A stretch of DNA of 64,000 bases. It comes from Psammoneis japonica. Its lineage: Eukaryota. Below the pieces are notes generated by a model. That model searched no databases. It worked only from the letters and a program-made list of their open reading frames with translations, and had not been told where the DNA came from. Both the position numbers and the translations under genes were made by a program. Shown piece by piece: positions 9,736 through 40,220 of this stretch. The DNA is taken from the NCBI GenBank assembly GCA_008632985.1, contig QPGO01000213.1, forward strand, positions 1-64,000. Direction: 5' to 3'. How positions within the stretch are numbered: position 1 is the first letter of the stretch; every line of letters begins with the position of its first letter.

Positions 9736-9815
9736 GGTGACGGACTACTCTCTGTTGCGGTTATTTGATACGATGGGTACATATTTTATTATGTTGGATG
9801 ACATCCAAACCATTT

Positions 9816-11485: not shown

Positions 11486-14400
11486 CTACCTCCTTGACTG
11501 CTGTCTCTTTGGGCAATCCTTAGAATGCGCTGGTCGACCTCTTGGTCGGCACCCCGTCACACTGTAGCTTTGCTGCAGCTTGTATTGTAGGAAGACAGGA
11601 CAACAGTATGGATCAATGTCTTGCTTCCTCTGATCCCGTATCAGATCATTAAGATTTGAAAGAGCCGGTTGCACTTGATATGGAACAGATGGGAGGGATG
11701 CGCTCATGCTCGATGCAATGGCAACTTGTTGTGACAGGGCGCTTCTCACGGCTTGCAACATGTTGAACTGCTCCTCGACTCGAACGTGAGCCGCGTTAAG
11801 TAATGGTGTGTCATTCACACACATAGATTCAACCCCCACCTGAGGAGCCGCCACAATTTCCACAAAACCACTAGCCGGTCGAACGCTTGCCACTGCTGTA
11901 GTTTCTCCATCGTTGCCGTTTCCAACAACTGATCTTGTTGTTCGCTTGTATGGATTTGTCACTGGCTTTGTCCCACAGATATTGCACATACATCGATCCG
12001 TCTCCGGGTGTGGAGTAATTGTTTCATTTCTAGCATTCTGCTCCCGCAGGTACTTGGACAGAAAACGCTCGCCGGTGTCCGCCTCGAGTTCCCTTACATC
12101 TGGATAGGGTGCTTTCTTCCCCTTCTTTGTTGCTAGCTTGTTGATTTCGATTAGATTGAGCACGTTCCGATGAGTAACCACACCCCGAAAATCGTATGGA
12201 ATCTTTGCTCGAGTCTCTGGATTCATTCGTTCAACGCGTTCCTTTTCTTCAATTGTAGCGTTGTAGAGAACCAAACCTTCCAGAGTGATCAAATCCATCA
12301 ATGAATCTCGCATCCCACAGTTCCCATAATGAGCCAGCGAATCATGAGCCTTTTCCAACTTTGACTCCGGCCCGAGTAATGTCCGCCACTTCACCAGCTT
12401 CGCTCTTGAACGGAGCGATGGAGCCACTGGCCAGTACTGCTCTGACTTTGGCACTGGAACGTCCAATCCCTTGGATGTTTCTCTTCCATTTGCCACGGCA
12501 TCCTTTGTATCACTTGTAAAGAGTGTCAAACCACTGTTTGGATCAAGACGTCCCCAGCGGGTCGCGATCCATCAGAAGCCGTACACTTATATCGGGCGTG
12601 CCAATCGTCAAGCAAGCTGATTCTCTTTTCCAGCGGATGCCTCCAAATGCGCATGTATTCTGAGTAGTGCTTCCACCTGGAAGAATGGATGATCTCATCT
12701 ATTTCTGCATCCGTGTGCTTTTTGCCATTGAGAGTTCCATCCTTGAGGGCTTGTATTACTGCTTGGCGGTCCGACCACTCGGTGTATGAAACTGTAGCTC
12801 GAAGGTCCCGAACTGCTTGATGATAGTCGACGTGGTCTTTTCGAAGTGTCTGTACAATACGGTGCATCCAGTGAAAGAGACCCAAACGGCATACTATGTA
12901 ACCTCCAAATAACACCTTCCATAACGATGACTTATTCGGCCAAGTGTCGCTGTAATGGATTTTTGGACGCACGTTCTTTCGCCTCGCGAACTGCTCGGCT
13001 GCGTGAGCAAAATCTTTTGCTTCCAACGTCGGTGTCAGACAAGCAACTCCAACCTGTCCCTTTTCGTTGCACATAGTAAATAGTCCTGCCGCCGCTCCAC
13101 CACCTTTCTTTGTATAATTCTTGAGAATTTGAAAGTGTGGTCAGAAGCCACGCTCATTGATGCTCCCACCATCTGGATCAATCTTGTACATCTGGAGTAT
13201 GATGACGTATCAAGAGCTGTCAATTCCGATGCGCCAGATTCATCATAAAGATCAAGAATCGCAGAACCTGATGGACTGTAGCTGCCAATCCACTCGTAGA
13301 AAGATATCCAGTCACCTGATTCATCGTTGGCTCGTTGATAATACTCTTTCTGGAGATCCTCGAAATAGGCAGCTCGCATCTGGTGTAGCGTGTGAGAAAA
13401 CTTATCGCCGTTTGCGTACGTGACAAGAAAGGATTCAAATAGCCTTGTGGTTTCCCTTGTAAGGTGCCATTTGTTGGTTGCGCTGGCATACTTTGGCTCA
13501 GTTGGATACGATGATTGAAGGCTTTTTGGTAACTTGTGTAGCAGTCGACCGTCGTTGCCCTTGCATCGCGTCTTGCATTTGTTGCACTCATACCACATTG
13601 ACACTGCCACATGAGTCTTACCGCTGATGCAATATATTGGCGTCGCCCCACCGTATCGAGTAAAGTCCATACGGTCATGAATCATCTCCCCGTCACACTC
13701 TCCGTCAATACAGGAAATGTAGATGTTAGGACAATTCAGCTCCCAACAAACGATGTATATTATCATACCCTGCAGCTGGTGGTAGTAATAATCAGGCGGT
13801 GAAGTGCAGTCATCCTTGGGAACTTGAAACGATATTGTACCAGGCGGAAAGGTACCATCCTTGACCTCCAGAATCTCTTTGAGCTTAGTGCTTTTTGCTG
13901 TAGCAACAGGATACGTGTTGCTGCCCTGATCAAATCTGGGCTTGACAGAATCCAACAGATAACTGATAAGAGCACTCACTGCAGCCGGGCACTTTGTCTT
14001 CTCCTCCGAGTTCTCATACTTTTTCACTCGTGCTCGAATCTCTTTTTTCAACGTCTCAACCGAGAATTTTGTATTCCTTGCGGCATCAAAAAGATTCGGG
14101 TTGCTTGCGACGGTAGAACTGGACGCTCCCAGATTCACGGGCTTGCAAAAGTTTGAATCACCGGGAGGAGGCAATGGAGCTCGACTGTTTGATTCTTTAA
14201 TTTCAAAATGGTCTTCCATGGTAGAAACTCCTTTCTGTGGGGCGGCTGGGATCGTATTGTTCTTTTCATGGAGCTCTTTTTCCCGTCGCTCTGCATCTTT
14301 CGTAGCCGCGGTGACATTGATTTGCATGTATCGTTTCGAAAACTTGCACGTGGGATCGTGACCATGATGGTATGTAGGCCCATTCTCACACCTCTTGCAT

Positions 14401-14678
14401 TTCTTTGTTCCGTCGTCTACTCTTGGCACCTTGCGCCCACTTAAATCGCTCTGTTGCGTGCGCTTCTTACGTGTCTGCGCTTGACTTTTGCTCGTTTTAA
14501 TGGAGCCTTTGCGCTTCTGGGATTGAATGCCCATGTTGATAAAGAAAGGATGCAGCTGCTGCTGTGTAGCCACTTTTAGTGGAGCTGATTCTTCTTCAAC
14601 GTCGGTCATCATCGAAGCACCAGTAGAGATTGTACTTTTCTCTCTCGTGGGTTTTTTTTGTGAGAGAATTTTTCTCAT
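11486..14678 (-). mobile_element. Zisupton/KDZ-superfamily (DUF6729-like) DDE transposase, split by two 1-nt frameshifts
   Basis: Motif order Cys cluster-YECNKC-LLHKLP-YP, SDHTFK, MCNEKGQV, HYSDTWP, CRLGLFHWMHR, SKLEKAH parallels Zisupton motifs as I recall them (DSTKK, NEHGQV, YVDRDCC, RLDIWHFMRR, LESFH). Confidence 0.7.
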
Positions 14679-15197
14679 CGCGACAGAAGTCTGTGTTGTT
14701 GTGTTTTTCCGTGGCGCGAAAAGAAGATGATTTCGGTCTCCGCATCATTTTGATTCTTGTGTCTGATTTTGGAGAGTTGTCTCAGCCTCCTCGTCTATAA
14801 ATGATTGCGTCAGATTTTCCGAAAAAATGTTAATTAATTAGTCGGAAAGTCCTCGACTTTCCGAGGGCCCCCTATAAGTAGAAATCCCAAATGCTGAATT
14901 CTGATTGGCTCTCGTAGCGCCATTCCTAATCCTCCCTCGGGATCGGGCCCCGCCCGTGTGACGCCAAGACCCCAACCTCATGCCGATGCCATGCCGCAGC
15001 CCTCTGCAAGCAACCAGCAACTGCTCTTATGCAGCTTTATCTTCAGCACCTCCTTTTGGATGAGCCCTTGCTTGATGAGTCGCAATGCTCCCACTTCCTC
15101 ACGAATCGGCAACAGACACCATGCCCATAAACAATCAGTGAGTCTTTTCCTATGATCAAGTCCTTCATATTCAATAGACACCCGATCAAAAACCGTT

Positions 15198-15864
15198 GTG
15201 CAGGCACCGGCTTCGATTCTCGCCTTTCTCTTTGACGATTTGGTCAATCAGGTGCAGCCGGGCGACCGTATTGAAATCACCGGGGTGCTGCGTGCCCAGC
15301 CACGACGGGTAAACCCCAAGATTAGCAAGGTCAATTCGGTATACAAGACATACGTCGACGTGATTCATTTCAGGCGTGTTCATGCCAACGACGAGACGCG
15401 CAGTGGTGGCCTAGCGTCTCGCTTCACTCCAGAACGTATTGAAGAGCTCACAAAGTTATCGCAGGAACCGGACATTTACAACCTCTTGACCCAATCCCTC
15501 GCAGCCTGGATTACGTCATGCGTGGTATTCTTTGCATGCTCTTTGGTGGCAACCATGTACGTGTCAAGCAAAACCAAGGCCAAGTCAGCGACAGCGACGA
15601 TGATGAACCGGAAGACGACGACCAAGATCAACATGACGCTCTAGACAAGCGTGGCGACATTAATATCTTGCTCTGTGGTGACCCGTGACCCCGGAACCTC
15701 CAAGTCGCAGTTGCTTGGCTTTGTTCATAAGATTTCGCCTCGCGGGATTTATACGTCAGGTAAAGGATCCTCCGCCGTGGGTTTGACGGCTTCTGTCGTG
15801 CGTGATGTCGAGACGAGGGATTTAGTCTTGGAGAGCGGTGCTCTTGTTCTCAGTGACTTAGGCG

Positions 15865-15895
<31 letters not shown>

Positions 15896-16880
15896 GGATT
15901 CAACACGTTCGGTACTTCATGAAGCCATGGAACAACAGACCGTCCGCATCGCCAAGGCGGGTATTATTGCCACGCTACACGCGAGGACTTCTATTTTGGC
16001 GTCGGCAAACCCTACCTCGTCCAGGTACAATCCCAACCAGTCTGTGGTGGATAACATCCAACTACCGCCAACGCTACTGTCTAGGTTTGATTTGATTTAC
16101 TTGGTCTTGGATTCTCCCAACGTGGAACACGACCGGCGTTTGGCTCAGCATCTTGTAGGATTGTACTACGAAACTCCTTCGGTCGTGCGGCCACCGCTCA
16201 AGCAAGAATTGTTGAGGGACTATATCGAGTACGCCAAGGACCATATTCATCCTTACTTGAGTGACGAAGCAACCAAGGACTTGCTGACGGCTTATTTACA
16301 GATGCGAAGCATGCATGGGTGGAGGTGGCTCGCGTACTATTTCAGCCACCCCTCATCAATTGGAATCCATGATTCGTCTCTCGGAAGCATTGGCAAAGAT
16401 GCGCTTCTCCGCAACCATCACGAGAGAGGACGCTCAGGAAGCTATTCGCTTGATTCAAGTAGCCACGCAAAAGCCGCAGAGACCGACACTCGGACGGGTA
16501 GGATTGATATGGACATGATTGCCATGGGCAAGTCGAGTTTGGATCGTCAGGAGCAGGAGAACATGTCGATCCACATCATGGAGCTCTTGTCTCATGTGAG
16601 TAACGACTGTTGAGACAAGTACCTGTGTATCCTTTTCATTCAGTTTTCTCGTTTGCTCATTTTTATTCTTCCTATGTCATACTGAATTATGCTTGAAAGA
16701 GGCAAGGAACTCGTATGGCTGTGCGGGACGTGGTGCAGCAGTTTGAAGAAATTAGCAATGCAGGAGACGAATTGCAGCACCATGACGGGGTAGTAAACAC
16801 TCTTAGGAGCCTGGAGGCGGACGGGTTGGTGCAATTTAATGAACGTGCTCAGACGGGTTTTTTTCGTTTTGGGGTGTTTT
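15198..16880 (+). pseudogene. MCM4: 5'-truncated MCM4 helicase pseudogene
   Basis: OB fold (VQPGDRIEITG), Walker A DPGTSKSQLL, YTSGKGSSAVGLTA, IDEFDKM, LLSRFDLIY. Frameshifts near 15505, 15680 (gtgaccc duplicated) and 16315; ATPRQLE appears as ATPHQLE; no N-terminus. Confidence 0.88.
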
Positions 16881-17370
16881 GAAACGATGCGTGTTTGATG
16901 CTTGATTCCGTCCGGTGCTGGCGACTGTGTTCGCTATTTGCAGCATGCGGTACCGTACGCAGTAGTTGGATTGCTGTAATGTTTTAGGTAGTAGTTTCAC
17001 TGAGAGCTGTTCACTACTAGTAGAACCTACGACGAGTAATCCTCAGACATATTGTACGATAAAGTACCATCCGTGTGGGAAACTAGCCAGTAAAACTCTT
17101 AGGAGCCTGGAGGCGGATGGGCTGGTGCAATTTATTGGACGTGCTCAGACGGTCTTTGTCGGCTTTGGGGTGTTTTGAAACGATGCGCGTTTGATGCTTG
17201 ATTCCGTCCGGTGCTGGCGACTGTGTTCGCTATTTGCAGCATGCGGTACCGTACGCAGTACTTTTATTGCTGTAATGGGTATTAGTTTCACTGAGAGCTG
17301 TTCACTAGCAGAACCCACGACGAGTAATCCTCAGACATATTGTCCGACAAAGTACCATCCCTGTGGGAAA
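16792..17370 (+). repeat. About 295-bp tandem duplication covering the MCM4 3' end and downstream sequence
   Basis: actcttaggagcctggaggcgga...aaagtaccatcc..tgtgggaaa occurs at about 16799-17081 and again at about 17095-17370. Confidence 0.9.
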
Positions 17371-17570
17371 ATAGGCAGTTTACAAAAATATGCCGTGCCA
17401 CAAGGATTACCGCCGGGTGGAACGTTTCCCGTGCCATACTAGCAAAACGATGGGCATCAGCAAAGCTACCGGTAGGAGCTGTATGCTGCAATATTTCTAT
17501 AGTTTCAGTAGCTACTTCGTTACATCGCCGAATGCACAAATAATGCGTCTTCAAGACAAACGAATGAATC

Positions 17571-18744
17571 TCAAAGCTCGGAAAATAATTTCTTCCATTT
17601 CTTATCTTTCAAAACGGCATTGGTATCAACAGACGCCAGTTTCCCGGCGTTTGTATACTCGTGAAATCCAGACTCAAGAATGTGCTTCGAATTGGTACTA
17701 GTAGGCGCCATCACCGACTCGACCTTTATGGAATGCTGAAGCAAATCGTTGGCTTGCCGGTTCGAAAACTGTTCGAGCAGAAAGTCCACAAGCTTATCGA
17801 GGTCCAGTTCCGACGCATATTTCTGCATGGCGCTCCTAACGTCTGCCCTAGATGCACTTTGCTGCTTTACCAGCCCTTGTTTAAAGGCGGCAACAGCAAT
17901 CATGTCAAATCGCAAATACTTGGATGACGACGGATTGCTTTGAAGAGCAAGATAGCCATCGTATAAGTGGCGACATACCAGGGGAGCTTGAGGTATCTCT
18001 TGACAATAGAACCGCTGCAACAATGGACCATCCGAATGGAAATTAAAGACCGGCACTTTTTGGTTGGGGAAGCGCTCTTGCCAACGTGTGTGAATCGCAA
18101 TGGGTTCATAGAAAGGGCGTCGTTCCTCCCATTTTTCTACGAATTGAGAAAAGGATGGATTCACCTTACCGCCCTCGCTCGGCCGCGTCTTGTACGCCCA
18201 CATTTCCGGGACTATTGACTTGATAATACCGACTCGACATAGTTTCGTAGTGCCGCCTTTAGGTAAAGACGATCTGTACCCTCCACCTCTCTAGGAGAGG
18301 AATCAAGTACTTGAACAGACGTTTGTCTTCCATGTTGCTGTTGAACGATGAAAAGTTTTCCTCCGAGACAAAAACCGTATGATTTTGCCCGTGATGGTAG
18401 TCAAGCAGCTCCCCGAATTCTTCCCAAGCAGCCTTGCATTCTTTTTGGCCTCCGTTACGACAGTACCTGACCAAGGCGTGCGTGCAGTACCCTCCTTCCG
18501 CGTGAGAGCTGCCGATGTAGTAGACATTGTCCTCTTGGAGCATCGTCCGATACCGAATAGCAAATTCTTGAATCGTCGTTGTACCGGTTTTAGCGGTTCC
18601 AATATGAAGAATAAAGAGAGGTTTTTCGCCATCGGCCATCGGCTGTCTTTTCTTTGGGACCGTCACTTTGAATAGCTTGGAATTGTTGGGCGACATCAAA
18701 TGCGACCCCCACCTGGAACACGACAAGAGCGATGCACAGACCAA
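17571..18744 (-). pseudogene. Diatom P-loop/sulfotransferase-like protein, disrupted
   Basis: LHIGTAKTGTTTIQ motif and FVSEENFS; in-frame TAA at 18259-18261 where Tyr would fit (FT*RRHYE), then a frameshift near 18205. Confidence 0.6.
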
Positions 18745-19290
18745 TCAATAAAATAACATGGTAGCACGTAATGGGAGATTGCGGAGCGATCATAGTGTCG
18801 TAATGTATTGAAAGAAGTTGGAAGAGCAACAACGTCAATGGCGCTATCGACCAGCATAGTGATGATGATTGATCCATTGATCATTGATCATTGATCCCAC
18901 AAAGAGCCGTTGCGTCACATTCGAAATTGAGTACTGTGTATGTACGTGGATCTTCACGTACGTACGACTTGCGTTTGAATTTCAAACTTCTTTATTTTGC
19001 TACACGGCAATTAATCCCAAGAATTCAAATTGATGAATGATGCGTATTCAATGCCTAAGATATCCAATACATTTTATCATGATATTAAAATGTTTTTGAC
19101 GTTAAAAATTGGGTGAGAGCAATCCTATAAATTAAAACTTGAATATATTATATTAAACGCACCAATGACCGACTCAACAAAGCAACAACGATGAGCAACA
19201 AACAAGTCCTCAAGAGTTTGCACCAACGCCGACGGAACCACAGCCGCCATCAACCTTGCCATACAGTATCCTGTACAATCGTGTGCCACC

Positions 19291-20454
19291 ATGAATAATC
19301 AGAATCAATCCAATAACAACAACGCCGCTGGAGCGCCTCCGCAACAACCCAATCCGTTCATGACACCACCCCGCCGCTCGAATGCAATTGCGATGGGCAC
19401 GCCGGGTTCGGCCATGTCGAATTACCAGGCTCGCGTGATGATAAATCAACAAGCGGTCGATGGTTTGAATCAGTTGGCAGGCCAACTTTGCCAAACATTA
19501 GAAGTCGTCAGCACCACCCTCGCACCCGACGTCCGTGAACCCGAGTAAGCACCAAAATATCTCATATTTTCTTCTTTTTGCATCGTTCCTTGCCTTGCAT
19601 CTAACTCATTTTGTGTTTTGTACCGTGTTTGGTGAAGATGGGGACACGTTCCGGATGTCGACGGGGTGCCGAACGATGTTGTTGTGCCGGTCGGCGGTGG
19701 CCAGAGCACCAGTGGTGCTCGAGCTCTGCTACTACCGCCCTCTGCTTCAGGCACTCCCAATGGTGTGGCGCCTGGTCATAGCGCCGGACCTTCTTCGACG
19801 CCTTCTGGTGGGTCTGCCACGAGTGGGGGCTCTGTTGTGGCGCCTCCTGTACCTTCCAGGAGTGCGCCTTCTGGCGGATCGTCGTCCACGCCTGCCACGC
19901 GTGGGGTGCCTGTTGTGGCGCCTCCTGCACCTTCCACGTCTGCCACCATTGGGGGGGCTGCTGTTGTGGCGCCTCCTGCACCTTCCAGGAGTGCGCCTTC
20001 AGGCGGATCGTCGTCCACGTCTGCCACGCGTGAGGCCCCTGTTGTGGCGCCTCCTGCACCTTCCACGTCTGCCACCATTGGGGGGGCTGCTGTTGTGGCG
20101 CCTCCTGCACCTTCCAGGAGTGCGCCTTCAGGCGGATCGTCGTCCACGTCTGCCACGCGTGAGGCCCCTGTTGTGGCGCCTCCTGCACCTTCCACGTCTG
20201 CCACCATTGGGGGGGCTGCTGTTGTGGCGCCTCCTGCACCTTCCACGGCACGTTCTGGCGGAGCGCGCAGGGGCCCTACCATTGTTTTTGGTTCCCCCGA
20301 CAACAGATCCCTGCCCCCCTTCAATTTCCGTTCGCCCAACAACGGTGTCGCGCTGCCGCCCGTTTACACGACGCCTTCTGGTCAGACCACAAACTCCAGT
20401 GGCATGACCCCCGAATCCACTTCACCGATGGATTATTCTCCCACCTATCCCTAG
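19291..20454 (+). CDS. Low-complexity Ser/Thr/Pro/Ala-rich protein with internal 43-aa repeats (probable intron from about 19545)
   Basis: ORF 19291-19548 ends at a GTAAGC donor; ORF 19666-20454 carries the repeats. The exact acceptor is uncertain. Confidence 0.5.
19833..20246 (+). repeat. 129-bp coding tandem repeat (VVAPPAPSTSATIGGAAVVAPPAPSRSAPSGGSSSTSATREAP)
   Basis: Unit starts at 19912, 20041 and 20170. Confidence 0.92.
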
Positions 20455-20737
20455 AGAGGAATCGAGCACGGCTCCTACTCTTTCTCTGTCGGCTGTACTA
20501 CGGTGCTATACAACATTGGGGACATGTAGGCATTGTTGGGTGCAATGTGCAATTTTTTGTGTCGGTATTTTTGCAATAGCTGCGACACTACTACAGAACC
20601 ATGAGAATAGACCCATTAGGGGTTTTGTGAAAAAGCTGATGACGAATCATCACTGCTCAAGCGTGCCAGTTTTTGCAATAGCTGCGACACTGTAGAACAA
20701 TAAGAATAGACCTATAGAGGTTTTGTGAAAAAAGCTA

Positions 20738-21011
20738 CCGTGATTATCATAGAAAATCTGTGCCACAGATTTTGGTTCAAAATTAGTACAGATTTTCAAG
20801 GATTCCGGAGAAATAGATACAGATCCTCAAAAAGTATAGATTTGCACTGATTCTGCCAAAACTGGATTTGGGTTTTCTCAGATTTGAAGAACCCCTCCCC
20901 TGCTGGGGTACAGATCCCAGATTTCCGTTCAGAACAGGCACAGATTTTCTGAAGCCCTGAAAAATAGGTACAGATTCTGATTTTGGCACAGATTTTCTAT
21001 GACAATCACGG
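20738..21011. mobile_element. MITE with 28-bp TIRs and a TA target duplication (Tc1/mariner-type)
   Basis: Left end TA|ccgtgattatcatagaaaatctgtgcca (20738-20765); right end tggcacagattttctatgacaatcacgg|CA (20984-21011); many internal ACAGAT motifs. Confidence 0.85.
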
Positions 21012-24000
21012 CACCACCAAGGAGCTCGTGCAGGGAGGTGACGACACTGCGCTGCCCGCATTTGCTGCAGGCCTGCAATCGTGCTGCTCAGACGGGAGAT
21101 GGAAGTGCCTCTTTCTTTAGTTTCTTCATCATGGGCCGAAAACATGTCACACTCCTTGGCCCCTGTCAGCCATGTGGTTTCCATTTCAGCGAGAAGGCTT
21201 TCTTCAATCATTCCATTCCCTCTCATGTGCCTGATGAAATCTCCAAGGAGATCAATGGAGCAGATGCTTGCGACCCTTCCAATCTCGGTGAAGTGGGAAT
21301 TGGTCTTTTGAAGTTCTACAAGACACTTTGCGCCTGTCATGAGCCGAAACAGAGAATGGAAAACCTCCTGTCTCCACGGTGCTTCTGGCGACAAACTTCA
21401 ACCTTCGAATCGCCCAGAACTCAGCAAACCGAGTGTTCAGCCTTGTGCTGACAACGACACGTTCGCCGTTTCCCGACAACCTCACTCCTTCCATGTGCCA
21501 ATGCCAACTTGTGCTAAATTCAAAAGAACATGAAACAGCCACCTTGCCTTTGTCGCTTTTGCCAATGCCAGCTGCAGTTGGAGCATCAAGAGCAATCTTC
21601 TTAAACCCCCTGATCAGATCTGCACCCCCCTTGTTCTCATTCTTTGAATTGTCCAGCAAACAAATTGCAAATTTGAGGTGAGCAAGCTCATCCAGGGGAG
21701 TGCCTCAGGGAGCACACTGAAAGCCTGTGTCCCTTCTCCAAACTTCCCTTGTGATGACAGCTCTCCCATGGCTGGAACTGGAATTTCCAGCAGAACAGTG
21801 CCAGGTGTGACTGTCTGTGCTGGTGGTGCAGGACTTGTGGGCCTCAACCTTGATCAAGATCACCACGTGCAATTGGCAGGAGGAGATTTGAAATCTTCAG
21901 AATTTTGGCAGGCAACAGCTGGTGCTCCCTGTTCTTCTGTTGTCACAAGAATGCTTTCCTCACAACATGATGAAATCTTGTTGCCAGCTCTGAGAATTGT
22001 TTGAACTTCTTTGCCAATGGTGGCATCAAGTTGCTTGAGGTCGTTGCTTGCTGGCACTTCCCAGCAAGCAACAAATCACGGGTCGGCTGCATGCAATGTC
22101 ATGCAAACCCTTTTCCAAATGGGTGGAATGTCAACCATGTTGTTTGTTTTTGGCACACCATCCCATCCAAGTTGAAGTCCGATGAGCAGCTGCAAGTGTG
22201 CTCAAGCTCTGGTCTCACCCATCACAAGCAAGTGTTGCTGTCAACAGTTGGGTGCTGATTTGAACCTGCTCCAGCTTTGTCATTCAAACAGCTTGTTGGA
22301 AATGCTTTGTGTTTCCCATGCAAAAAGCAGCGAACATTGAATCAATTGGATTGCATGCTCTCAAAATCCGTGCATTTGTGCCCAGTGGACTCAGAGTCTG
22401 AGTCCACTCAGAGCCCAAAAACCTTTTCCTCTGAGCTTTCAACATGTTTGCAAGTTGTTTGCTGACAGACAAAGTGTCTGTGGCCTTCATTTCCAGCAAA
22501 CAGGCATCTTGGTCAACTAACGAGGCATGTGGGTGTTTGCAGACATTTGCACCATGACTCCCGCCACAACCATCATCTCTTTTTCTTGTTTTCTTTTGTC
22601 TTGCCGCTGGCTCAAATGGCAAAAAGAAAAAAGAACACAAGGATGCAGCATGACATCCTGGCTCATGCAGATTTGCACCTGTCCCGTTTGTCACTGTGAG
22701 CTGGAAACAAACGTCCAACTCTGAACGCGGTCACAAAGAATGTGCGCACCTCCATTGTAAGAAACCATTTGCTCAACATGAACTCAAACACACAAGCCCA
22801 AGGCTGTTCAAGCAATTGGTGCCACTGGACCTGGAGCCAACCCACATGGAACAATGAGGTTTTGTGGGGACACCAAGACAGGATGGATGACATTGGTGGA
22901 TCCCAAAAGTTCAATGTCTTTTGGTGCCGGAACCCAGCAAGTGCCCCTTGTCATTGACACACATCACGAGTGTCTTAGAGCTGAAACTCTTTGTGTTCAC
23001 AGTTCTTTTGCAGTGCTCATGCGGACATCATTGTGGAAGAATCGAACACCATTTTGCCATTGAAGGGTTCTGGGTGACTGCAATGAAGTCAATGAGAATC
23101 TCATGACAAGAGTGGCAGTGAATTGCCAAGAGGATTTCAGCTGTCAAGATTCCAAGATGCAAAAGGTCATGGAAACAGCAACAGAGTTGGATGACAACAA
23201 TGGTGCTTCTTCACAAGAACCCAGATCACAGTCATCAACTTGTGTGTTGGAAATCAATGAAGAGTTCTGCAAGCTGTTTGCTCACAGCCAAAGCACCAGC
23301 TGACACTGTCATGGAGTGGATGAGCAGCTGTCAGATTCAGAAAAAATCCTGTCAAAAAATTGTGCTTGCCGTTGGTTCCAACCAATGCAGCTGATCCAAG
23401 TTGGTGCCTTTGTCAGCCCAAGCTCATGAGATGAGTTCTTGTGATGCTCATTTTCCAGCTGGCTAGATTTGCACTCCTGTGGACATGACGCTTTGCAGCT
23501 GGGCAGTCTTTGCAGGAGCATTTGTTGACATGTCATCATTTGTGCAGAAAAAAGAGTGATTTGATTTGCCAAATCATTGTTGCTCATGGACCACCACAAG
23601 CTGTTGGTTGTGCAACAGTTTTTGCTTTCAAAGAAAAAGCTCCCTGTCAACATTTTTGTTGAAAAGAATCATGCCTCATGCCCTTGACTGAATCAATTCT
23701 CCATCAAAAGGAAGCAACAGTGTGAAAACAAACAGAAGACAATGTTCAAGACATTGAAGCTTTGGCATTCCAATGGAATGGCAGTTTGACAAGATTGGGG
23801 AAAGAGTGCAAGTGGGACAGATCACTCTTGAGAGAGAGTGGGTTGAAAAGTGTCAGCGGGAATTCTCAGCAAAGTTGTGCATTCCTGAATGAATCTCAGT
23901 CACTCGTGGATGTTTTTCAGAAGGAAGCAGCCAACCAAGTGCTTTTGAAACTTGGGCAGCAAGAGGAGCAATTCTTGATCGTGGAGTTCAATGATGATGC

Positions 24001-25275
24001 AACAAAACAAAGAATCACACACGGTCGCATTGTCAGCTTGCAAAAGAATGTCTCATTCTCTGGGACGGGTTCTAATCAAGAGCAAGAACAAAAGAGGATG
24101 AGCATCCAGATGAAATTGCCTTTAAATTGAAAGCTCACCTTGAAAAAGCAATGGATGCATGGTTTCGTCTCGGGTTGACAAACAAATTGTCGATCCACGG
24201 CCTTGGCGTGCACGGCAGTGACGACTTTGAATTTTGGAGTGGTCTTCACAAATGAAATGATGAAGAACTCATGGAGCAGGTGCATCATTGTGAGACAATG
24301 GATGCATTGTGCACTCAGGGATTTCACTCTCTCTCACTCTAAGCAGCTGAAATTCAACGCTTTCACATGTTCAGTGCAAGCAGCCAGAGTCACACGGAGG
24401 AGGTCAACGAAAGTTGAAAACGCAAGTTCAAAAGTGATCGAGCTGAAGTGGGTGCGGCAGCCCGAGTTGAAAGGGAAAAAGCTTGGAATCACATCTTTGA
24501 GGCCTGCAAAACAGGGAAACCAGTTCTTGAAGATCCCTTGGTGGTGCTGACCAAGGGAACCTCAGCATGGTCCACATCCAAGCAATGACAATCATTCGTG
24601 CATGAAAATTTAAGCAAACAACATGTGTGAGGAAGACGTGACCGCAATGACGTCATTGAACTGCACTGTCATTGCTCAAAATCAGTTCAAAGCTCACGAA
24701 TTCAAACTGCAACAATGGACAAGAACAGCGCGACTCTTTGACAGCCACATCGTTGACACAGAAAAAAAGAAATCTTTTGATGTCTTTCTTCAACTTGCCC
24801 CAACTTGTGTTTTCTTGTGCATCTCTCATTTCTTGACAATTGCTCACTTCTTTCCTTGGAACAAACACCACACATGAGACACTGGCATTGCTGTCTTGGA
24901 CAGGCCATTGTGTGGTCATTTGCCCTTGGAAGCCAGCACCGCAAACGGAATCATTCGTGGCACATCGTTCATGGTGTTGCGCAACGTTGCTTGCATTGTG
25001 CATTGAGTGCATGCATGTGCTCGTTCCTCGTTGAGAGCACAACGCACTGAAACAAACAAAGTTGAATCAGTGCGACGAAAATGCGTGCCATTCTATGCAC
25101 GTGGCCAACATGCCAAGAATCGGGATGCTGAATGCGCGAAATGCACGTGAGCTCGAAGGAGAATCCGACACCGCGCCGCAAGCCACAAGAGCAAGCAACA
25201 ACAATGCCAAAGCTTTGATCGACTGTCGCATTGTTGTTCGTTGTTTTCTTTGTCTTTGTCATTGTTGTCTTTGTC

Positions 25276-26938
25276 ATGGACGCGGCGCCTTTGTTGGACT
25301 TTGGCGGTGAAGGAGATGAGACTCCCGAACGAGAGTGCATGCAACGCTTGTTCCAAAGGATTGCGGTTCAAAACGAGCAGGAAATGGAGAAACTTGAAGA
25401 ACCATTGCGGTCGCTGGTGCGACTGGTGCATCAGGCAAGGACACATTTTCTTTCAGCTCTGCACTCCCCATGGATGGAGAATTGAAACCGAAAAAAAGAG
25501 AATCAACTCACGTGCGCTGATTGCCTTTTGCTCAAAGCAAAAATGGGTCGAGGCAAAGGAGTGCATCCTGTTGCACCCACAAGCAATGCATGAGATCACA
25601 ACTTTGTTTGCTGGCAGATCTGTCACTCACATGGCCTGCAGCAATTTGGCTGATGTTGAAGAATTCAATGAAGCAGCTCGTGTTCAAAAACTCAACCAAG
25701 ATGATAAAACGGAACGTCAAACATGTGACTTTGTGCAGTCATTGTTTGATGCAGCTTTCAGTTCCGACGATTTAGATTCACCCTCGAAACGGGCACTCGT
25801 ACAATCAATGTTGTTTTGTCGCGATTGCAAAGGATGCACGCTGCTGCAAAGCCGCGTCATCTACAACTTCTGGAGTGCGACTGATCCAGCGCCGCCAGCA
25901 AAGATTCTTCTGGAGTCGGCTGGAAATGCCTCTCCCACAACTCCGTGCGAATTGGTCACCGCTGCATGCGAGAGAGGCCGGACAGTGTTGCACATTGCAT
26001 CAGGGGGGGAGTTCCCGCACCAGATTTTTGAGCTTCTAATGGCTTGTTGCGGAGGCGCTCCGTCAGAGAACCCCACTTTAATTCTAGATGGAGATGGTCA
26101 ATCCATTCTAGACCTTGCGGTTGTCAATGCTCTGTCGGGAAGGCGTTGGAATGGGATGTTGGAACAAGGTTTCGGAGGACTTGTGCATCAAAATGATGAG
26201 GGTTTGTTTCCAATTGACAGAGTGGTTCAGGTTGCTCATCGTTTTGAGAGACCGGGAGAGCACATCTGTGAAATTGTTTTTCTCATGTTGCGAGCTCACT
26301 TTGGAAAAGTCGAAGCAGCATCTGAAGACTGGTTTCCACTTCATGCTCTGGCGCAGGCACCCTTTTGTTGCCCGTGCGTGTCAAAGTTTCTCCTTGAAAC
26401 ATGCAACTGGAGCAACCAGCTTTCAACCTTGGATTGTCAAGGCATGTTGCCACTTCACAAGGCGGCTGCACAACCCATGCCAGAGTTGCTGCTGAGAGCC
26501 AACCAAACTCCACTGACCTCAAAGGAAGTGAGTGCCTTGCAGGCACTGTCAGCTCAAAAAGCACTTGAAGAGCTTCGGTGTCACCCAAAGGAGCCAATCC
26601 CGTCGTTGAGTGGCATGGAAATGACGGAAGGTGAAAACAATGTGATTCTTTTGTTGCTGAATGCTGGCCCTGATGCTGCGGCTGCACCAGCAATGGTTGG
26701 CAGTCGGCTGGCACTTCACTGTGCCATCGAATCGGGTCACGCATGGGAAGCAGTGCGACAGTTGTAGAAGACTGCTCCAGATTCAGTGATTGCTCCTGAT
26801 CCTAAAACAGGACTGTTTCCATTCATGCTGGCTGCGCCAGCTCCCGAAAATCCTTCTTCTGGCTTCGAGAGGAAGTCCAACAGTGGACTGGATGCGACAC
26901 TCGATTGGTTTGCATTGCCCAAGCACATTTCTCCCCAA
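25276..26938 (+). pseudogene. Ankyrin-repeat protein (diatom type), hypermutated
   Basis: GRTVLHIA, FPLHALA, MLPLHKAA, LALHCAIESG, DPKTGLFPFMLAA. Intron 25435-25537 has a GCAAGG donor and joins in frame; TAG stop at 26765-26767; one Tyr in 508 aa. Confidence 0.75.
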
Positions 26939-27328
26939 GACGCGTTCCAGGTCTAGGTGGGACCTCGCACTACTGCACTGTGACATCGACAGTTTTTTGA
27001 ATCACGTCGTATGTCGCGCACGTAGATTTCTACGTGATTTTTTCGATATTTTGTGTCATTTTACGGTACACTTATTGAGCGATCTGTCCAACAACTTTTG
27101 ACATTTTTTGTTACAGCGCGATTCTATAATGTCTTAAGAATCGCGTAGGGCAGGCGCATTTGCAGAAACGTCGAGTGGCAAGAGGCATAATTGCACCACA
27201 AACTTGGCAGTTCATTTGATGTTGAAGACAAACAAATCCATTAATTAAATTCTAGCACTGCGGAGCTCGCACGTAGAATTCTACGGGCCCAATGTCACAC
27301 GGAGTCCCACCTAGGACTGGAACCCGTC
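26939..27328. mobile_element. 390-bp MITE with imperfect 25-bp TIRs and a CCAA target duplication
   Basis: gacgcgttccaggtctaggtgggac (26939-26963) pairs with gtcccacctaggactggaacccgtc (27304-27328); CCAA at 26935-26938 and 27329-27332; interior is TA-rich. Confidence 0.8.
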
Positions 27329-27759
27329 CCAAGCCGGTTTGGCAACTGAGAAGGCCACAGGTGCTTGTCATGTCGGTGCCACAGTTTTTGTGTCCAAGCA
27401 GTGTTCCTCGGTGTTGCAATTCATCGTCGTCATGTGAAAACGTTTGGCCGGTGTCTCACATGACATTGACATGCACGGAAGCCGCAGGTGGCATGTGACA
27501 CTTTCTAGTCAGCACAATCTATTTTTGCCGCCCTCTCGTCCCATCGGTTTGTCAAGCTCTGGACTGCCGCAGTCAGTGGCATCTAGTTTCGACGCCCTCT
27601 CGGTTTAGCAAGCTCTGAACCACTGTGAAGCTTTGGCAAAGAGGGACGTGTTGGAGCCAGTTGAAAGAAAAGAGGAGCACTTGAGAAAGCAAGGAGTTGA
27701 GAAAATGTGCCTGAAGCAGTCGCAACACTGCGACAGTCACAGGCATCACACTACAGTCA

Positions 27760-30188
27760 GCAGCATCCAGTTTCGACGCCCACTTGTGCTCTTGGTTTAG
27801 CAAGCTGTGAAACTTGAACTGTCACTTTGTCATTAAAAACAGTTTGAGCATGACGCCCGCAAAACTTCTTGTCATCATCTGGCAGCAATTCCCACTCCTT
27901 TTGTCCCTTGTCTGCATTGCAGCAGGGGTGTTTCAAGACAAGTCGGTTGCCACAGAGAAAAAATCCTTGATCTCGAAACGCAGTTGACTCACAATGCTCC
28001 TCGTCTCCAGCCAAAGGCTCGCCCCGTGCCCATGCAAAATGGCTTCGTAACTGAGATGAAAGCGTCCCGTCTTTGGTTTCATCGTGTCTCTTGGAGTTCC
28101 TGTCAAACTGGAAGGACGACTCAAAGAACAAATGTTCTTGCTAGTTTGGAGAAGCTGTGGGTGTCAGCACACTGTTGTGGTGGACAAAAGTTTCCAAATT
28201 TTGAGAACAAGACGAGTGCAGTGGCGCCAGTGAAGAAAGCAAAGCCCTGTCATCAACGGCTGTCCTCATGTTCTTGACAGTGGGGATGAACGCAGAAACA
28301 AATGTCGAGACTTGTCAGTCTCGGCATCAAAGTCCTTTTGGGGATCAGCCTTTGATTTCATGTGGTTCGAGGGACGACTTGCCCGGACATGGAAACAGGG
28401 CTTACGTTCTGTTGTCCTGCCATCGTTGCCGTGCCTAGAGAGGCAAACTTTTATGGTGCATCGAGGCTCGTTCAGCAAAACAGCCATTGCAACTTTTTTG
28501 AATTCAATCATGTCTGGTTGTCAAAGCTTTGTCCAGATGCAAAGAAATGTTCAATGTTGTGACTGTTGAACCGCTGTGGGACGGAAAGGATGGTGCTCCT
28601 GTCGAAGAAGAACCGCCCTTGTCAGAAATCATGGCATGGGACAACAATGAAGGCGAGTTGCAGTTGCAATGTTGTTGTGTGGTCACGCTGCTGGCAGAGG
28701 CCTTCATGCAAGTTGATGGATTTGAGGTGCTTCTTGCATGAAAATTGCTTTTGTGTGGACTCGAATCCCTTGTTCATTCCGCTTCTTCTCTTGACAAGGA
28801 AGCAGTCTCAGCATTCTGACTCGACGTTGCCATGTCTGCAGCAAGATCCGAGTCAGTGTCGTGCCACGAGCCCATGTGCTCATCTTCATCCCCGTCCTTT
28901 CTGCCAGGACACCAACGGCCATCTCGTGAATGCTTGTCAAGGCGACGGCATCGCCTCCTGCGTTTTTTGCCCTTCGAGTTGACCCGCCCACACTCTCATC
29001 TAATTCGTTTCATCCCAGGTGTTCGCCATCCTCGTCATTCGTGCTCCTCCATTTCCTTCCACTGGCCATTCTATTGAATTCTTCTGAGTCTTCTCTCCTG
29101 CGTTGCACACTTAACTCTGAATTCTCACTCTCGTCAGATTCGCTTCCTCCCAGATGTGCGTTGTCCTTGCAATTCGAGCGGCTCTTCTGTTCTGTAAAAC
29201 ACCATCCTCTCCATCGCCATCGATTTTGGCGACAGCATCCTGCTCAATTGCAATCTCATCGCCATTTCCTTCAATTTCCTCCTCGGTCATTTCATCCTCC
29301 TTTACGACCTCAGACTGCTCGTCATTCTCCAAAACAACGCATTCAATGGGATGTGTTGCCTCGATGCCTGCGGATGCCAGAAATTTCTTTGCAGAAACCA
29401 CCGTGCCACAGAGATCAACAAAGACAGACAATGCACACACGTGCAGGCATTGCCACCCCACATGCTCGATGGACTTCTGTTGCCCACAACAACTCGTTTC
29501 CATTCTTATCTAGAGAGTAGAGTCGCCGGCACAATCAACGCAGACAGCTGCTCGATGCGACGACCGGAATCCCCGGTGCACAAGGCGCAGTTCCACACAA
29601 CACCCATTCGTCTGATGGAGTGTATTTCGTCTGTCAGAAGCCTTTCTATCACTCCCTCCACTTCCTCTCGAAAGGATAAAATGGCGGCGCCGTTCAATGA
29701 GAAACCCTGGATGGTGGATTTGTTCTCGTCTCCGGACCCACTCGCTTGCGAATCCACAAAGAAATCAACAATGGGTCCCTTGACATCTTCCCCATTGGAA
29801 TGTGACTGGCGTCAACACTCCTGACAAGTTCCATTCGATCACGTGCCCTAGAAAGTTCAACACTTGCACGCTGCGCATGCATTTGCGGATTTGCAACATC
29901 AGAACACTTCCAACAGAACACACGAGACCGAGGAATGTTGCGTCCCTTTCGGCTCACTGAAAGGTTTGAGAATCACCAATCATTGTCAATGTCGTGCTCC
30001 TTGCATTTTGCGGGTCCAATCGCATCCAGAACTAACTCCTTCTCGTTCATCTGCCAAACCTTCTTCGGCTTCTTCCGGCAGCAACAAATTGTTGGAATTG
30101 GAGCGCCAGAAGCGGTTTTGGTGGTGGACGACACATCAGGGCGCTGCTGCTGCTGCGTTCCGTCATGATGTGATATTGTGTACGGCAT
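27760..30188 (-). pseudogene. Degenerate long coding sequence of unknown family
   Basis: Chain of minus-strand ORF fragments starting MPYTISHHD at 30188, with an acidic tract and scattered stops and frameshifts. Confidence 0.35.
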
Positions 30189-30650
30189 TGTCGAGATTAT
30201 CTCCAGTATAACAAGCACAGTGCTTTGTAGCGGTGTCGATTGCAGCGACGATGGCTGCTGCCGGCATCATCATGGCGCGAGCGCAGAAAATTCGAAAGAA
30301 TGAGTCGTCATGCAGTCGTATCAATCGAACATACCCAGAGGAAAATGAATACCCTCATTCACGGAGAGAAATATGAACGGGGGGTTCGCAAATTTCATTC
30401 GAACCTTCAATTACTGAAATGTAAATTAAAAGAAAACGGCATGCTGTTTTCATTTTCTGCGATGATATGACAGCACAAAGACGACAGCCGCTTCATCATA
30501 GTAATCGTATGTACCACCTCTTCTCTTTGTTACCGTGGAAGGCAGCGCCCTCTTACAACCCTCTTTAGCTAGACGACAACAAATCACAGTATTGGAAATC
30601 CTGTGGATACTCGACATTTTCTCTCGAAACCAAACGCATACTCCATAATC

Positions 30651-32135
30651 ATGAGCACTGCTGACGACGATGATGGAGTGGAAATGTTTTTATCTCAGGG
30701 ATCCTACAAGCCCGTTATTTTGCCATCGACATCGTATCGAAGCAAGCACGAATCCGAATCCAAACGCCGTTGGAAATTATTAAAAAATGTGGCTCGGTTA
30801 ACGACGCGCCGATCGTCTCTTACCCCAGCCGAACAAGATTTGTTGCAGGCTCTTTCCGACAAGAAACAGAGCTCCGCAGTAACGTTTTCGGCTACACAAG
30901 AAAAGCAAGATGATTCTACCAAGACACGAAAAACCAATCATCGTCAATCGTTGCGTCAGTCCATTCTACGGAAAAGCCATGCCTTGAATCGACAGGAAGC
31001 AGATTTCTTACAGAGTCTCGTATTGGCGGAAAATGTACCCGAGGAACAGTTGGAAAAGGTTCAGCACGTACTAAGCAGCGATCCATTGTACGACGACGAT
31101 GAAAGCAGTGCCGAATTTGTCAAGCAACCTACAACAGTCCAGTCTTTTTCTCGACCCAAATTGAATCAAGAGGGACCATCCTTTCGAAAGGAAGTATGGC
31201 TCGAGTATACACCCAAACCGCCACCATCCTCCGCGCGTTCTCTCCGAGAAGAACAAGACGAACAACCACAGCAACAACAAGAAGAACGGACACCCAGCTT
31301 GCTTGACAAGCTCTTTGGAATAAAGCAACAAGAAGATCCAAAACAAGCACTACAAGACAAAGATTCAAAAGAAAAGGAAGAGAGTATGATTCCAACTGTC
31401 ATTTTGGCGACGCACGTGCACGACACGGATTGCTACCCACACGTCCTGTCACCACCCATGATGGATGCACTCCGTCCGTATTTGCCTTTTTGTATTCAAC
31501 AAGATAATTATTGGCTCAAGTACTCTTTATTACGAGACGGCGCTTCGATGAGATGTCTGCTATCGCACATTCGCGGTTCGGCACGAACCATTCTCGCCAT
31601 TGAAACCTTGGATGGGAATGTCTTTGGTTCCTTTACAAGCAGTCCATGGCGTCCTCAGGGTCGCAATTATTATGGTAGTGGTGAAGCGTTTTGTTGGAAA
31701 CTTGGTCAAAATCGATTCACGCCGTGTGATACTCCTCAAGATCAAATTGAATTGGAATCCAATCTAGACGTGTATCCGTGGACTGGACAGAATCGTAACG
31801 TCCAATCGTTGGAAACCATGGATTCCCATTTGGTATTGGGTGGTGGTGTAGTGGACAAGGATATCTTGGTGACGGATCATCATGACAATGTCGACAAGAA
31901 GGACGACGACGGTTCCGCGCTTGTCCTTGATCCAACCTTGGAACGGGGCACGACACAAGCCAGTATTACGTTTGGCAATCCTCCGCTTATTACCACCGAC
32001 AATAATACTACTGTCTTTGAGATTGCCAATATCGAAGTATGGACCATGACACCGGTCCAACACGTTTCTCAAGCCATGCAATTGGAAATGGGACGACAAT
32101 TCATTTTTGATCATGGTAATTTTGTTGAACAATAA
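30651..32135 (+). CDS. TLDc-domain protein (OXR1/NCOA7-like)
   Basis: WLKYSLLRDGASM, GNVFGSFTSSPW, YYGSGEAFCW, FEIANIEVW. Confidence 0.9.
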   Translation: MSTADDDDGVEMFLSQGSYKPVILPSTSYRSKHESESKRRWKLLKNVARLTTRRSSLTPAEQDLLQALSDKKQSSAVTFSATQEKQDDSTKTRKTNHRQSLRQSILRKSHALNRQEADFLQSLVLAENVPEEQLEKVQHVLSSDPLYDDDESSAEFVKQPTTVQSFSRPKLNQEGPSFRKEVWLEYTPKPPPSSARSLREEQDEQPQQQQEERTPSLLDKLFGIKQQEDPKQALQDKDSKEKEESMIPTVILATHVHDTDCYPHVLSPPMMDALRPYLPFCIQQDNYWLKYSLLRDGASMRCLLSHIRGSARTILAIETLDGNVFGSFTSSPWRPQGRNYYGSGEAFCWKLGQNRFTPCDTPQDQIELESNLDVYPWTGQNRNVQSLETMDSHLVLGGGVVDKDILVTDHHDNVDKKDDDGSALVLDPTLERGTTQASITFGNPPLITTDNNTTVFEIANIEVWTMTPVQHVSQAMQLEMGRQFIFDHGNFVEQ

Positions 32136-32637
32136 AGAATAGCGCTTGGTGTCGATGCAGTCTTGATGAAAGAGCGCAGTTTGTACATTCTTTTAGTCTT
32201 TAAGGCCTGCATATACTTGTCGTAAAACATAATACTGTAATGAATCTGGTATGTACCGTTTACTTGAAACTCACCGACGTGTTACTGCTACTACTCAGCC
32301 CTACCGGTAGCTACGGCTGTAGTAGAGAGGACGTAATGCATTGAGGTTAGCCTAATTATTTGATCAAGGTGATGCTTGCCTTGCTGCAGTACATTGGTTT
32401 TTGGTAGTCGGCCTTATCATTGCTCTCCAGAGGATGCGGGCAGCACTGTTTATCTTTTAATATAGGGCCCTATTCTTTAAGAGACGAATGCACACAGTAA
32501 ATCTATAACCGGCAGAGCGATAGGCAGATGTACAGTTTCTAGTGTTTTAGATAAACAAGGTTTGCTCCCATGCTTTCTTAGTGTTCCCCAAGCCGCACTT
32601 TGCAAAGCTTTACAGACGGAGGTCCTCCTTGTAGCAG

Positions 32638-40200: not shown

Positions 40201-40220
40201 CATGGTGCACAGCACCGTGT

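Follow-up and report, generated by a model that had tools for sequence, protein, structure and literature searches.

Does a process that removes TpA from a genomic domain stop at the edge of that domain, or does it reach into DNA lying across the border? The 64-kb stretch of DNA analysed here (the window) raises this question: a short MITE lies at the border of a TA-poor domain, and its two ends are no longer the same. A preprint by Mettrop et al. (bioRxiv 2026, 10.64898/2026.01.13.699255) describes, for Bigelowiella natans, 124 clusters in which foreign DNA, integrated viral sequences included, has undergone TpA-to-TpG/CpA hypermutation. According to the same text, de novo mutations in mutation-accumulation lines of B. 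natans were almost exclusively TpA to TpG or CpA, and a DNA adenine deaminase was proposed as the enzyme.

A short inverted-repeat element with unequal ends

The MITE-like element is 274 bp long (20738–21011, + strand), within the length of less than about 800 bp expected of a MITE, has a G+C content of 40%, contains internal ACAGATTT-type sub-repeats and is without credible coding capacity. Only one ORF crosses it (20783–21397, minus strand); this ORF reads through from the domain, where stops are scarce, and gave no Pfam match. Its 28-nt terminal inverted repeats (TIRs; left arm 20738–20765, + strand; right arm 20984–21011, − strand) are complementary at 27 of 28 positions; the first-pass annotation had recognized the inverted repeat and had made its arms too short. 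The 15-nt end motif was found at only two places in the window, one in each arm (0.04 expected by chance), and the chance expectation for the TIRs was 0. The element folds back on itself with −51.3 kcal/mol (z −7.8 against shuffles). A second copy in the 64-kb window was detected neither by blastn with a word size of 9 nor with a TA-degenerate 27-nt arm pattern, which matched only the two arms with up to 3 mismatches allowed, and the exact arm patterns gave 0 matches in metagenome contigs, viral contigs and prokaryote genomes. The adjoining segment 20434–20737 was considered as a second, nested TIR element and rejected because no inverted repeat bounds it.

At the left end, an intact target-site copy TA (20736–20737) is followed by CCGTGATTATCATAG, the canonical form of the arm with its GATTATC. 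The right end reads CTATGACAATCACGG followed by CA (21012–21013), which in reverse complement is TG followed by CCGTGATTGTCATAG. These are the end sequences that had been noted before, and the two differences between them are where they had been placed, on the side facing the domain. One is in the right arm at 21003–21004 (+ strand), where CA is found instead of the TA predicted by arm symmetry; the other is in the right target-site copy itself at 21012–21013 (+ strand), which is CA instead of TA. In both cases the T of a + strand TpA has been replaced by C (positions 21003 and 21012), which is TA to TG when the end is read inward. The locus without the element would read ...AAAAAGC-TA-CCACCAAGG....

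The element shares with Stowaway-like, Tc1/mariner-derived MITEs its short length, non-coding and A+T-rich sequence, TIRs, fold-back, multiple copies and TA at the flank. Its arms are presumably unlike the plant Stowaway terminal motif, and the TA duplication is the one feature that points to the putative superfamily assignment (Tc1/mariner, Stowaway-like).

The border of the TA-poor domain

To the right of the MITE, the domain 21000–26948 keeps TA at 1.9% of its TA+TG+CA sites, compared with 23% in normal DNA. Calculated per kb, TA rho stays near 0.6 as far as 21000 and is 0.01–0.13 across 21001–27000. In the windows of 21001–26000, TA rho was 0.01–0.08 and TG and CA rho were 1.43–1.87, and the windows of 37001–50000 were similar. 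The preprint defines a TpA-hypermutated domain as a run of 3 or more adjacent 1-kb windows with TpA rho ≤0.43 and CpA+TpG rho ≥1.52, and 21001–26000 falls within this definition. The domains in the window are CpG-poor as well; beside the MITE, CpG starts to be lost only at about 21600, farther to the right than the TA step. No strand bias of TG versus CA was seen in the domain beside the MITE.

The transition is abrupt. TA dinucleotides are dense through 20998 and afterwards occur only at 21118, 21317, 21515 and 21602; a two-state segmentation of TA versus TG/CA sites switches between 20998 and 21000, and the TA share falls from normal to about 2% at 20999–21003, within the last ten bases of the MITE. 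A TA-poor domain adjoining the right end had been proposed from the letters alone, and the rho step, the sparse TA and the segmentation all bear this out. There are about ten such borders in the 64-kb window according to the segmentation. On the other side of the MITE, the left flank (20455–20737) is single-copy DNA of normal TA content (rho 0.9, depth 48), in which TA remains frequent all the way to the insertion site (20693–20736). It lies downstream of a tandem-repeat ORF that ends at 20454; the repeats of this ORF at 19857–20429 are rich in Pro, Ser and Ala. This latter segment was also classified as TA-poor, and we considered it as a leftward extension of the domain; it was rejected, being 65% G+C and a 126-bp tandem-repeat ORF whose unit is without TA, and the 300 nt between this ORF and the MITE have a TA rho of 0.9.

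A TIR-bounded, TA-normal island is present at 26939–27328 in the same domain. Because the TA at both ends of this island is intact, spill-over from the domain into adjoining inserted DNA is not automatic.

Other copies of the element

Other copies were read from public contigs of the same organism, from three sequencing runs (X1, X2 and X3) placed on the window. The word length of Logan contigs is 31. X2 contributed one additional contig and X3 none, and their missing cover was not taken as absence. X1 may be the source sample of the window assembly, and its contigs, which reproduce both junctions with 0 other letters (records 1 and 8), are thus no independent confirmation of the junction bases. 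The contig difference table omits 30 nt at the ends of placed pieces and is therefore blind at 20738–20767 and 20982–21011; it has 5 further unlisted rows, none of them C-to-T judging by the change-type counts.

The summed contig depth was 48 in the left flank, 560–2640 inside the MITE and 58 in the right flank, changing within 20733–21017. Because the contigs are 10–50 times deeper on the element than on its flanks, the MITE is multi-copy, and its earlier reading as a MITE is upheld. Fifty-nine X1 contigs were placed on the MITE region, 15 of them at least 99% alike, and loose contig ends cluster at 20736 and 20738, as expected for many genomic copies with sharp common ends.

The contig ends also tell which bases are shared. 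Four contigs with unrelated flanks start fitting at 20736, and therefore the left TA is common to those copies. The left contig of this locus ends at 20765, its last 31-mer consisting of one flank base, the TA and the arm; TA plus left arm is therefore a 30-mer shared with other copies. The right contig of this locus begins at 20973, whereas the mirror position would be 20984, and its first 31-mer ends exactly at 21003, so that the contig graph must branch at 21003. From there the contig continues unbroken into the flank at the single-copy depth of 58. Because the contig breaks at this base and then stays single-copy, 21003 carries a C unique to this locus, in an arm that is otherwise canonical. 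At the right end of another copy, an X2 contig has TA after the arm (loose end behind 21008). TG is found before the left arm in three contigs, and a diverged copy (record 7), whose placement extends to 21013, may have CA at its flank as this locus does. Taken over the family, the putative target-site copies are TA and CA at this locus, TA at four other left junctions and one right junction, and TG in three left contigs, as would be expected if TpA mutation had worn away a TA duplication.

Two further changes in this copy were found in the contig difference table: CA at 20939–20940 (+ strand), where 72% of family depth has TA, and CA at 20857–20858 (+ strand), where 89% has TA. They lie 73 and 155 nt inside the element, in its right half, and none was seen in the left half. 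The C at 20939, common to ~28% of family depth, may mark a subfamily. Record 5, a contig whose depth corresponds to about 4 copies, has 1 other letter in 113 nt, and 20857 is probably this single difference. This copy detectably differs from its closest relatives only at 20857, 20939, 21003 and 21012, each time by a T-to-C change at a + strand TpA. Of 17 inferred TpA sites, the 4 that were lost all belong to the 8 farthest to the right (hypergeometric P = 0.029, one-sided), a right-hand bias counted over 4 events only. Because of the two internal changes in the right half and none in the left, the edge is steep with a short penumbra and not a clean cut. The prediction that the asymmetric ends place the domain edge within tens of bases holds for the steep step at 20998–21003, and falls short for the penumbra, which extends ~155 nt to 20939 and 20857.

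Losses of TpA are not confined to this copy. At many, indeed most, sites where the window has TA, TG or CA makes up 7–45% of the summed depth of the family, and paired same-strand TpA changes are also present within single contigs of other copies.

Direction of change and possible explanations

The direction of change was read from repeats. Six alignments paired repeat copies in TA-normal DNA of the window with copies in TA-poor DNA. Of 23 TA in the normal copies, 16 corresponded to TG or CA and 1 to TA in their poor counterparts, and in 0 cases did a TA in a poor copy face TG or CA in the normal one. The direction is therefore TpA to TpG/CpA, and the MITE ends agree with it. That the mutation could be polarised as TA to TG from the ends had been proposed in the first-pass annotation; the private C at 21003, the repeat pairs and the preprint data support this. 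The change at 21012 arose in place and not in a source copy, because this base is host DNA outside the element, and for the same reason the process acts on genomic DNA in place.

As for what the domain contains, the 21 stop-to-stop ORFs of 20783–30168 gave one ankyrin match above the Pfam cut-off and one sub-threshold match, and no viral or transposon domain was found among them by Pfam. The ankyrin ORF had no relatives at E ≤0.001. Of two host ORFs in the window, one, an MCM4 exon, was at most 68% identical to any match in a search of longer proteins only, and the other, of 810 aa, has only two distant matches; no protein near-identical to either was found in a 5.8-billion-protein collection, where the MCM4 search again covered longer proteins only.

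The domain resembles the B. natans clusters in its kb-scale depletion of TpA with enrichment of CpA+TpG and in the direction TA to TG/CA. It differs from those clusters of foreign DNA in that Pfam recognized neither a viral nor a transposon domain among the 21 ORFs, that the domains in the window are also CpG-poor, and that a border is fixed to a few bases by a transposon. The preprint's main text makes no mention of MITE, border, boundary, edge or CpG; a full-text literature search for TpA hypermutation beyond it returned only papers on fungal RIP and on dinucleotides of viruses, and a search for B. natans with MITE or transposable elements gave nothing relevant. Fungal RIP likewise hypermutates particular DNA segments in place, through transitions at one dinucleotide, and it too is rather well delimited, with a little leakage into adjacent sequence. 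However, RIP depends on duplication and the sexual cycle and turns CpA to TpA by C-to-T changes, enriching TpA in repeats, whereas in the window the direction is the opposite, with TpA depleted and CpA enriched. ADAR-type A-to-I hyperediting shares the T(U)pA context, with U preferred 5' of the edited A, and the A-to-G change on one strand; all four changes in the MITE are on the same strand. Unlike ADAR, which acts on double-stranded RNA, the change here is fixed in genomic DNA in place, because a host base (21012) has been altered and the MITE is itself a DNA transposon.

We favour, with a probability of roughly 55%, in-place TpA hypermutation of a domain whose edge falls inside this MITE, the MITE being present while the process ran. 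A TA-targeting MITE, Stowaway-like in habit, would have inserted at a TA at the left limit of a kb-scale domain, and, with the MITE already there, a transition process specific for TpA and yielding TpG or CpA would have altered the domain in place. In the MITE region it would have changed the TpA of the right target-site copy (21012) and the penultimate TpA of the right arm (21003) and, at lower density, the two TpA sites 73 and 155 nt inside, without affecting the left half or the target-site copy and flank on that side. Its footprint would thus end within the MITE, saturating to ~21003, sporadic back to ~20857 and absent beyond. However, the MITE family may be a target anywhere, the loss of 4 of 17 sites not being above the family level, and adjacency to the domain is not the sole possible cause because other copies carry TA to TG/CA and three contigs are TG-flanked. 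If hypermutation targets the family itself as repeated or foreign DNA, adjacency to the domain would be coincidental; the TG/CA share of family depth and the TG before the left arm would be accounted for, and the preprint (10.64898/2026.01.13.699255) finds transposon domains enriched among TpA-depleted coding sequences. We regard this as unlikely, though far from negligible: the four changes are all in the rightmost 8 of 17 sites, the other changed copies may themselves sit in or beside TA-poor domains, and a chance co-location is unlikely because the MITE lies within a few bases of a border and there are only about ten borders per 64 kb.

The timing could be reversed: the domain would have been hypermutated first and the MITE would have landed at its junction later, the step reflecting only an age difference and residual activity reaching ~155 nt past the old edge. 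Later insertions do occur, as another small TIR element within the domain has an entirely normal TA content, and the MITE lost 4 of 17 TpA compared with more than 90% lost in the domain. This seems improbable to us, as the left flank, which formerly would have abutted the domain, keeps the dense TA that a 155-nt reach would erode; moreover, in-place TpA mutation after insertion is still needed, and only the timing differs from hypermutation with the MITE already in place. TIRs of MITE families are often imperfect, and the asymmetry might simply have been inherited from a source or subfamily that already had ...GATTGTC... in one arm, the true ends and target not being TA/TA. The placement of record 7 through 21013 and the three TG-flanked contigs would suit this, yet the contig of this locus leaves the family exactly at 21003 and is single-copy from there, TA plus left arm is common to other copies, the X2 contig has TA after the right arm, and counting TA/CA as part of the element leaves no target-site duplication; we consider such inheritance very improbable. 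Ordinary background substitutions or an assembly error are hardly credible. The ends do differ at two bases only, but four identical changes in the same dinucleotide with no other change type detected would have to be coincidental, and the public contigs reproduce both junctions with 0 other letters, although this run may be the source sample.

With ends identical at insertion, the MITE serves as an internal control that gives the ancestral TpA state on both sides of the border without an outgroup, and it suggests that the process continued after insertion. The conversion footprint falls from more than 90% to 0% over ~150 nt, with a steep step inside 5 nt. We are doubtful whether this amounts to a base-pair-sharp limit at the boundary of targeted DNA with a strand-coherent overshoot of ~150 nt, in an organism other than the published B. 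natans strain. If it does, the same-strand pattern would point to processive single-strand adenine deamination running outward from the domain, and, if the organism differs from that strain, the system would be more widespread than one preprint shows. A family-wide analysis would map what aims the process, be it segment identity, chromatin or the repeat itself, and whether its changes form single-strand runs.

Structure of the element, its family and the difference between its ends

The element at the domain border is a MITE-like foldback sequence of 274 bp (20738-21011, 40% G+C) that ends in a left (20738-20765) and a right (20984-21011) terminal inverted repeat of 28 nt each. The two arms are complementary at 27 of 28 positions, and the sole mismatch is an A at 20746 opposite a C at 21003: the left arm has TA at this site and the right arm has CA where TA is expected. 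The element is also flanked by TA on the left (20736-37) and CA on the right (21012-13), and the arm difference (21003) and the flank difference (21012) are each T-to-C at TpA on the plus strand, which the first-pass annotation had given for the reverse complement. When folded as single-stranded DNA, the element gave -51.3 kcal/mol (z = -7.8 against 200 shuffles). A tandem duplication of ~102 bp (20568-20634 and 20670-20732; 85% identity, with an exact 22-mer) abuts the element on the left in single-copy DNA, and one contig carried a copy-number or joint variant at this duplication (20568-20732).

No second copy of the element was found within the 64-kb window by window-wide comparison of sequence and arm pattern. 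The 15-nt end motif had no further match there (0.04 expected from shuffles), and a TA-degenerate 27-nt pattern with at most 3 mismatches detected the two arms and nothing more over the whole window. The public DNA run X1 contains 0.81 of the sampled words from 20300-21500, and we placed its contigs on 20600-21150 at a likeness of at least 80%. The summed contig depth was 48 in the left flank, 560-2640 over 20733-21017 and 58 in the right flank, and the 59 placed contigs had likenesses of 99% or more (15), 95-99% (6), 90-95% (24) and below 90% (14). Their loose ends grouped at 20736 (n = 4) and 20738 (n = 3). The flanks of the four contigs loose at 20736 agreed only to 0.53, and these contigs therefore represent separate loci, all four sharing the left-flank TA. 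The element is a member of a family with common, sharp ends; taken together with its size, its terminal inverted repeats and its lack of coding capacity, these ends identify it as a MITE. A contig of a second run, X2, representing another copy, reads GGG-TA after 21008, and thus has TA at the position of the window's CA.

Logan contigs are assembled from words of 31 letters, and the listing of differences omits any that lie less than 31 nt from an end of a placed piece (the values 47 and 49 of one contig, record 7, are distances to 20903); other copies are comparable inside the element at ~20768-20981, and the arms lie outside that listing. The contig breaks are informative about the arms. The left contig of the element's own locus (record 1) has no other letters and ends at 20765, so that its last word is the 28-nt arm preceded by TA and a single flank base, meaning that the 30-mer of TA plus left arm is common to other copies. 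The right own-locus contig (record 8) also has no other letters, starts at 20973, where mirror symmetry predicts 20984, and continues without a break into the right flank at single-copy depth. Its first word thus ends exactly at 21003, which locates a graph branch at 21003. From this assembly behaviour we infer that the canonical arm with C at 21003 is present in no other copy of the run. The contig breaks agree with the arm symmetry, which points to the right end as the changed one. The first-pass annotation had proposed that the two ends differ and that only the right one is mutated; the asymmetry is borne out, and arm symmetry and contig breaks both favor the right end, with two further changes inside the right half that had escaped notice.

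TA-poor domains and direction of change

TA rho per kb was 0.43-0.88 in 1001-21000, 0.01-0.13 in 21001-27000 and 0.01-0.16 in 36001-51000, and TG and CA reached 1.4-2.0 in the TA-poor domains. Two-state segmentation of the window by TA versus TG/CA sites gave TA-poor segments at 4-947, 21000-26948, 27318-30171, 34187-51113 and from 62793 to the window end, where TA makes up 0.8-4.7% of the sites versus 23-29% elsewhere. The switch at the element lies between TA at 20998 and CA at 21003, and the borders at 30172 and 34183 are equally abrupt. CpG is depleted as well, with a CG rho of mostly 0.14-0.6 in 21001-30000, 35001-50500, 1-1000 and 63001-64000. At the element border it stayed at 0.5-0.75 through 21012-21600 before falling to 0.04 in 21601-22000; the onset of CpG loss is further into the domain than that of TpA loss.

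The segmentation also scored 19857-20429 as poor. This is a 65% G+C, Pro/Ser/Ala-rich ORF of 126-bp tandem repeats that ends at 20454, and we rejected it as part of a TA-poor domain because the repeat unit itself lacks TA. The tandem repeat (19812-20265) holds ~3.6 copies of the unit at 90-94% identity, and long ORFs on both of its strands are a side effect of composition. The 300 nt between this ORF and the element have a TA rho of 0.9 and single-copy depth, showing that the element's left side is ordinary DNA.

The TA-normal 4-kb segment at 30172-34183 contains a TLDc-domain ORF (30603-32135) and a repeat (33146-34156) with a second copy at 54710-55556. A RING-finger ORF of 569 aa (49840-51549, plus strand) spans the border at ~51115, which means either that a gene contains the border or that the loss of stop codons created a spurious ORF. 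The only N of the window, at 37022, is within the large TA-poor domain. A TA-normal island (26954-27312, 28% TA sites) is embedded in the TA-poor domain that adjoins the MITE. The arms of a 25-nt inverted repeat (26939-26963 and 27304-27328, 88% complementary) enclose it; each inner end retains its TA, and each outer side reads CCAA. This is probably a further small terminal-inverted-repeat element (26939-27328), inserted after hypermutation.

The direction of change was read from six alignments of repeat copies, one member of each pair lying in TA-normal and the other in TA-poor DNA (for example, 53638-54348 with 39359-39716, 48334-48425 and 41471-41561). Among 23 TA sites of the normal copies, 16 corresponded to TG or CA in the poor partner, 1 was kept and 6 had changed otherwise, and among 28 CG sites 17 had become TG or CA and 4 were kept; one normal segment enters against two poor copies, and the sites are partly non-independent. 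The sole TA in a poor copy aligns with a TA in the normal copy. The direction assumed at first, TA to TG/CA, is upheld, with no reverse case.

Changes inside the element and their timing

Two more TpA losses were found inside the element. The window copy has CA at 20857, where the family has T at 486.9 of 546.2 depth (89%), and at 20939, where T accounts for 1087.9 of 1504.7 (72%); C makes up ~28% of the family depth at 20939, and this change may be non-private. One letter, most simply that at 20857, separates the window from record 5 (20776-20888), a contig with a depth of about four copies. All detectable differences of the window copy from its nearest relatives (20857, 20939, 21003 and 21012) are thus T-to-C at TpA on the plus strand, and TpA is kept at 13 sites (20736, 20745, 20750, 20784, 20787, 20814, 20818, 20835, 20837, 20909, 20965, 20969 and 20998). 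The four losses, a small number for polarity statistics, all fall within the rightmost 8 of 17 sites (hypergeometric P = 0.029): 2/2 in the last 10 nt, 2/6 in 20857-20998 and 0/9 further left. The first-pass reading holds in direction and kind, but the edge carries a penumbra ~155 nt long. In other copies, neighboring TpA hits within a single contig share a strand, with T-to-C at 20965 and 20969 in one contig and A-to-G at both 20966 and 20970 in two. Together with the four T-to-C changes of the window copy, this very small sample hints at single-strand runs.

Alternatively, the MITE family itself may be the target of TpA mutation. In its other copies, the majority of TpA sites show a change to TG or CA (7-45% of depth), TG precedes the left arm in the three contigs fitting from 20738, and the CA flank of the window copy is perhaps common to record 7, which is placed through 21013. 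The island at 26954-27312 keeps TA at both ends, so spill-over into adjoining inserted DNA is not automatic; presumably, the island element arrived after the process had stopped at its site. Position 21012 is host DNA outside the element, and its change was therefore neither inherited from a source copy nor made on an element transcript, but arose in the chromosome after insertion. The left flank has dense TA right up to the insertion site (20693-20736), though it adjoined the domain before insertion, which argues that the element was present before or early in the process and that the process extends only a short way past the domain. In the mechanism we favor, the TpA process would have run after insertion, converting the right end and spreading a short distance into the element.

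Relation to TpA hypermutation in Bigelowiella natans

Mutation-accumulation lines of B. natans yielded 302 nuclear point mutations, 231 of them within two integrated viral regions; almost all of the 231 were A-to-G or T-to-C, these all on TpA, and the authors suggested a DNA adenine deaminase (Mettrop et al., bioRxiv 2026, 10.64898/2026.01.13.699255). The same genome has 124 clusters of TpA-depleted, CpA- and TpG-enriched 1-kb windows (10.64898/2026.01.13.699255), and the domains described here qualify under the preprint's composition criterion. From 211 mutations, 6169 TpA and 3132 generations, with a background rate of 3.5e-10 per site (10.64898/2026.01.13.699255), our arithmetic gives, as an illustration only, ~1e-5 per TpA per generation. 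At those rates a domain could be stripped of TpA in 1e5-1e6 generations while a 274-bp element acquired no ordinary substitution, which matches the window copy, whose differences from its relatives are at TpA only.

The MCM, Ipi1, TLDc, ankyrin and RING ORFs indicate that the window is eukaryotic. Among the longer proteins of a 5.8-billion-protein collection, the MCM4 exon (15651-16613) had its best identity, 68%, with an unnamed metagenome protein, and its named matches, mostly diatoms, had 62-65%; the Ipi1-like ORF of 810 aa (2817-5249) had two distant relatives only. The collection held no identical or near-identical protein for either, suggesting that the organism appears poorly represented there or that gene models differ.

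TpA hypermutation as such is already known from one preprint (10.64898/2026.01.13.699255), and the words MITE, border, boundary, edge and CpG do not appear in its main text. Added here are a base-level border, a relative date and the CpG co-depletion, and possibly a second organism with TpA hypermutation.
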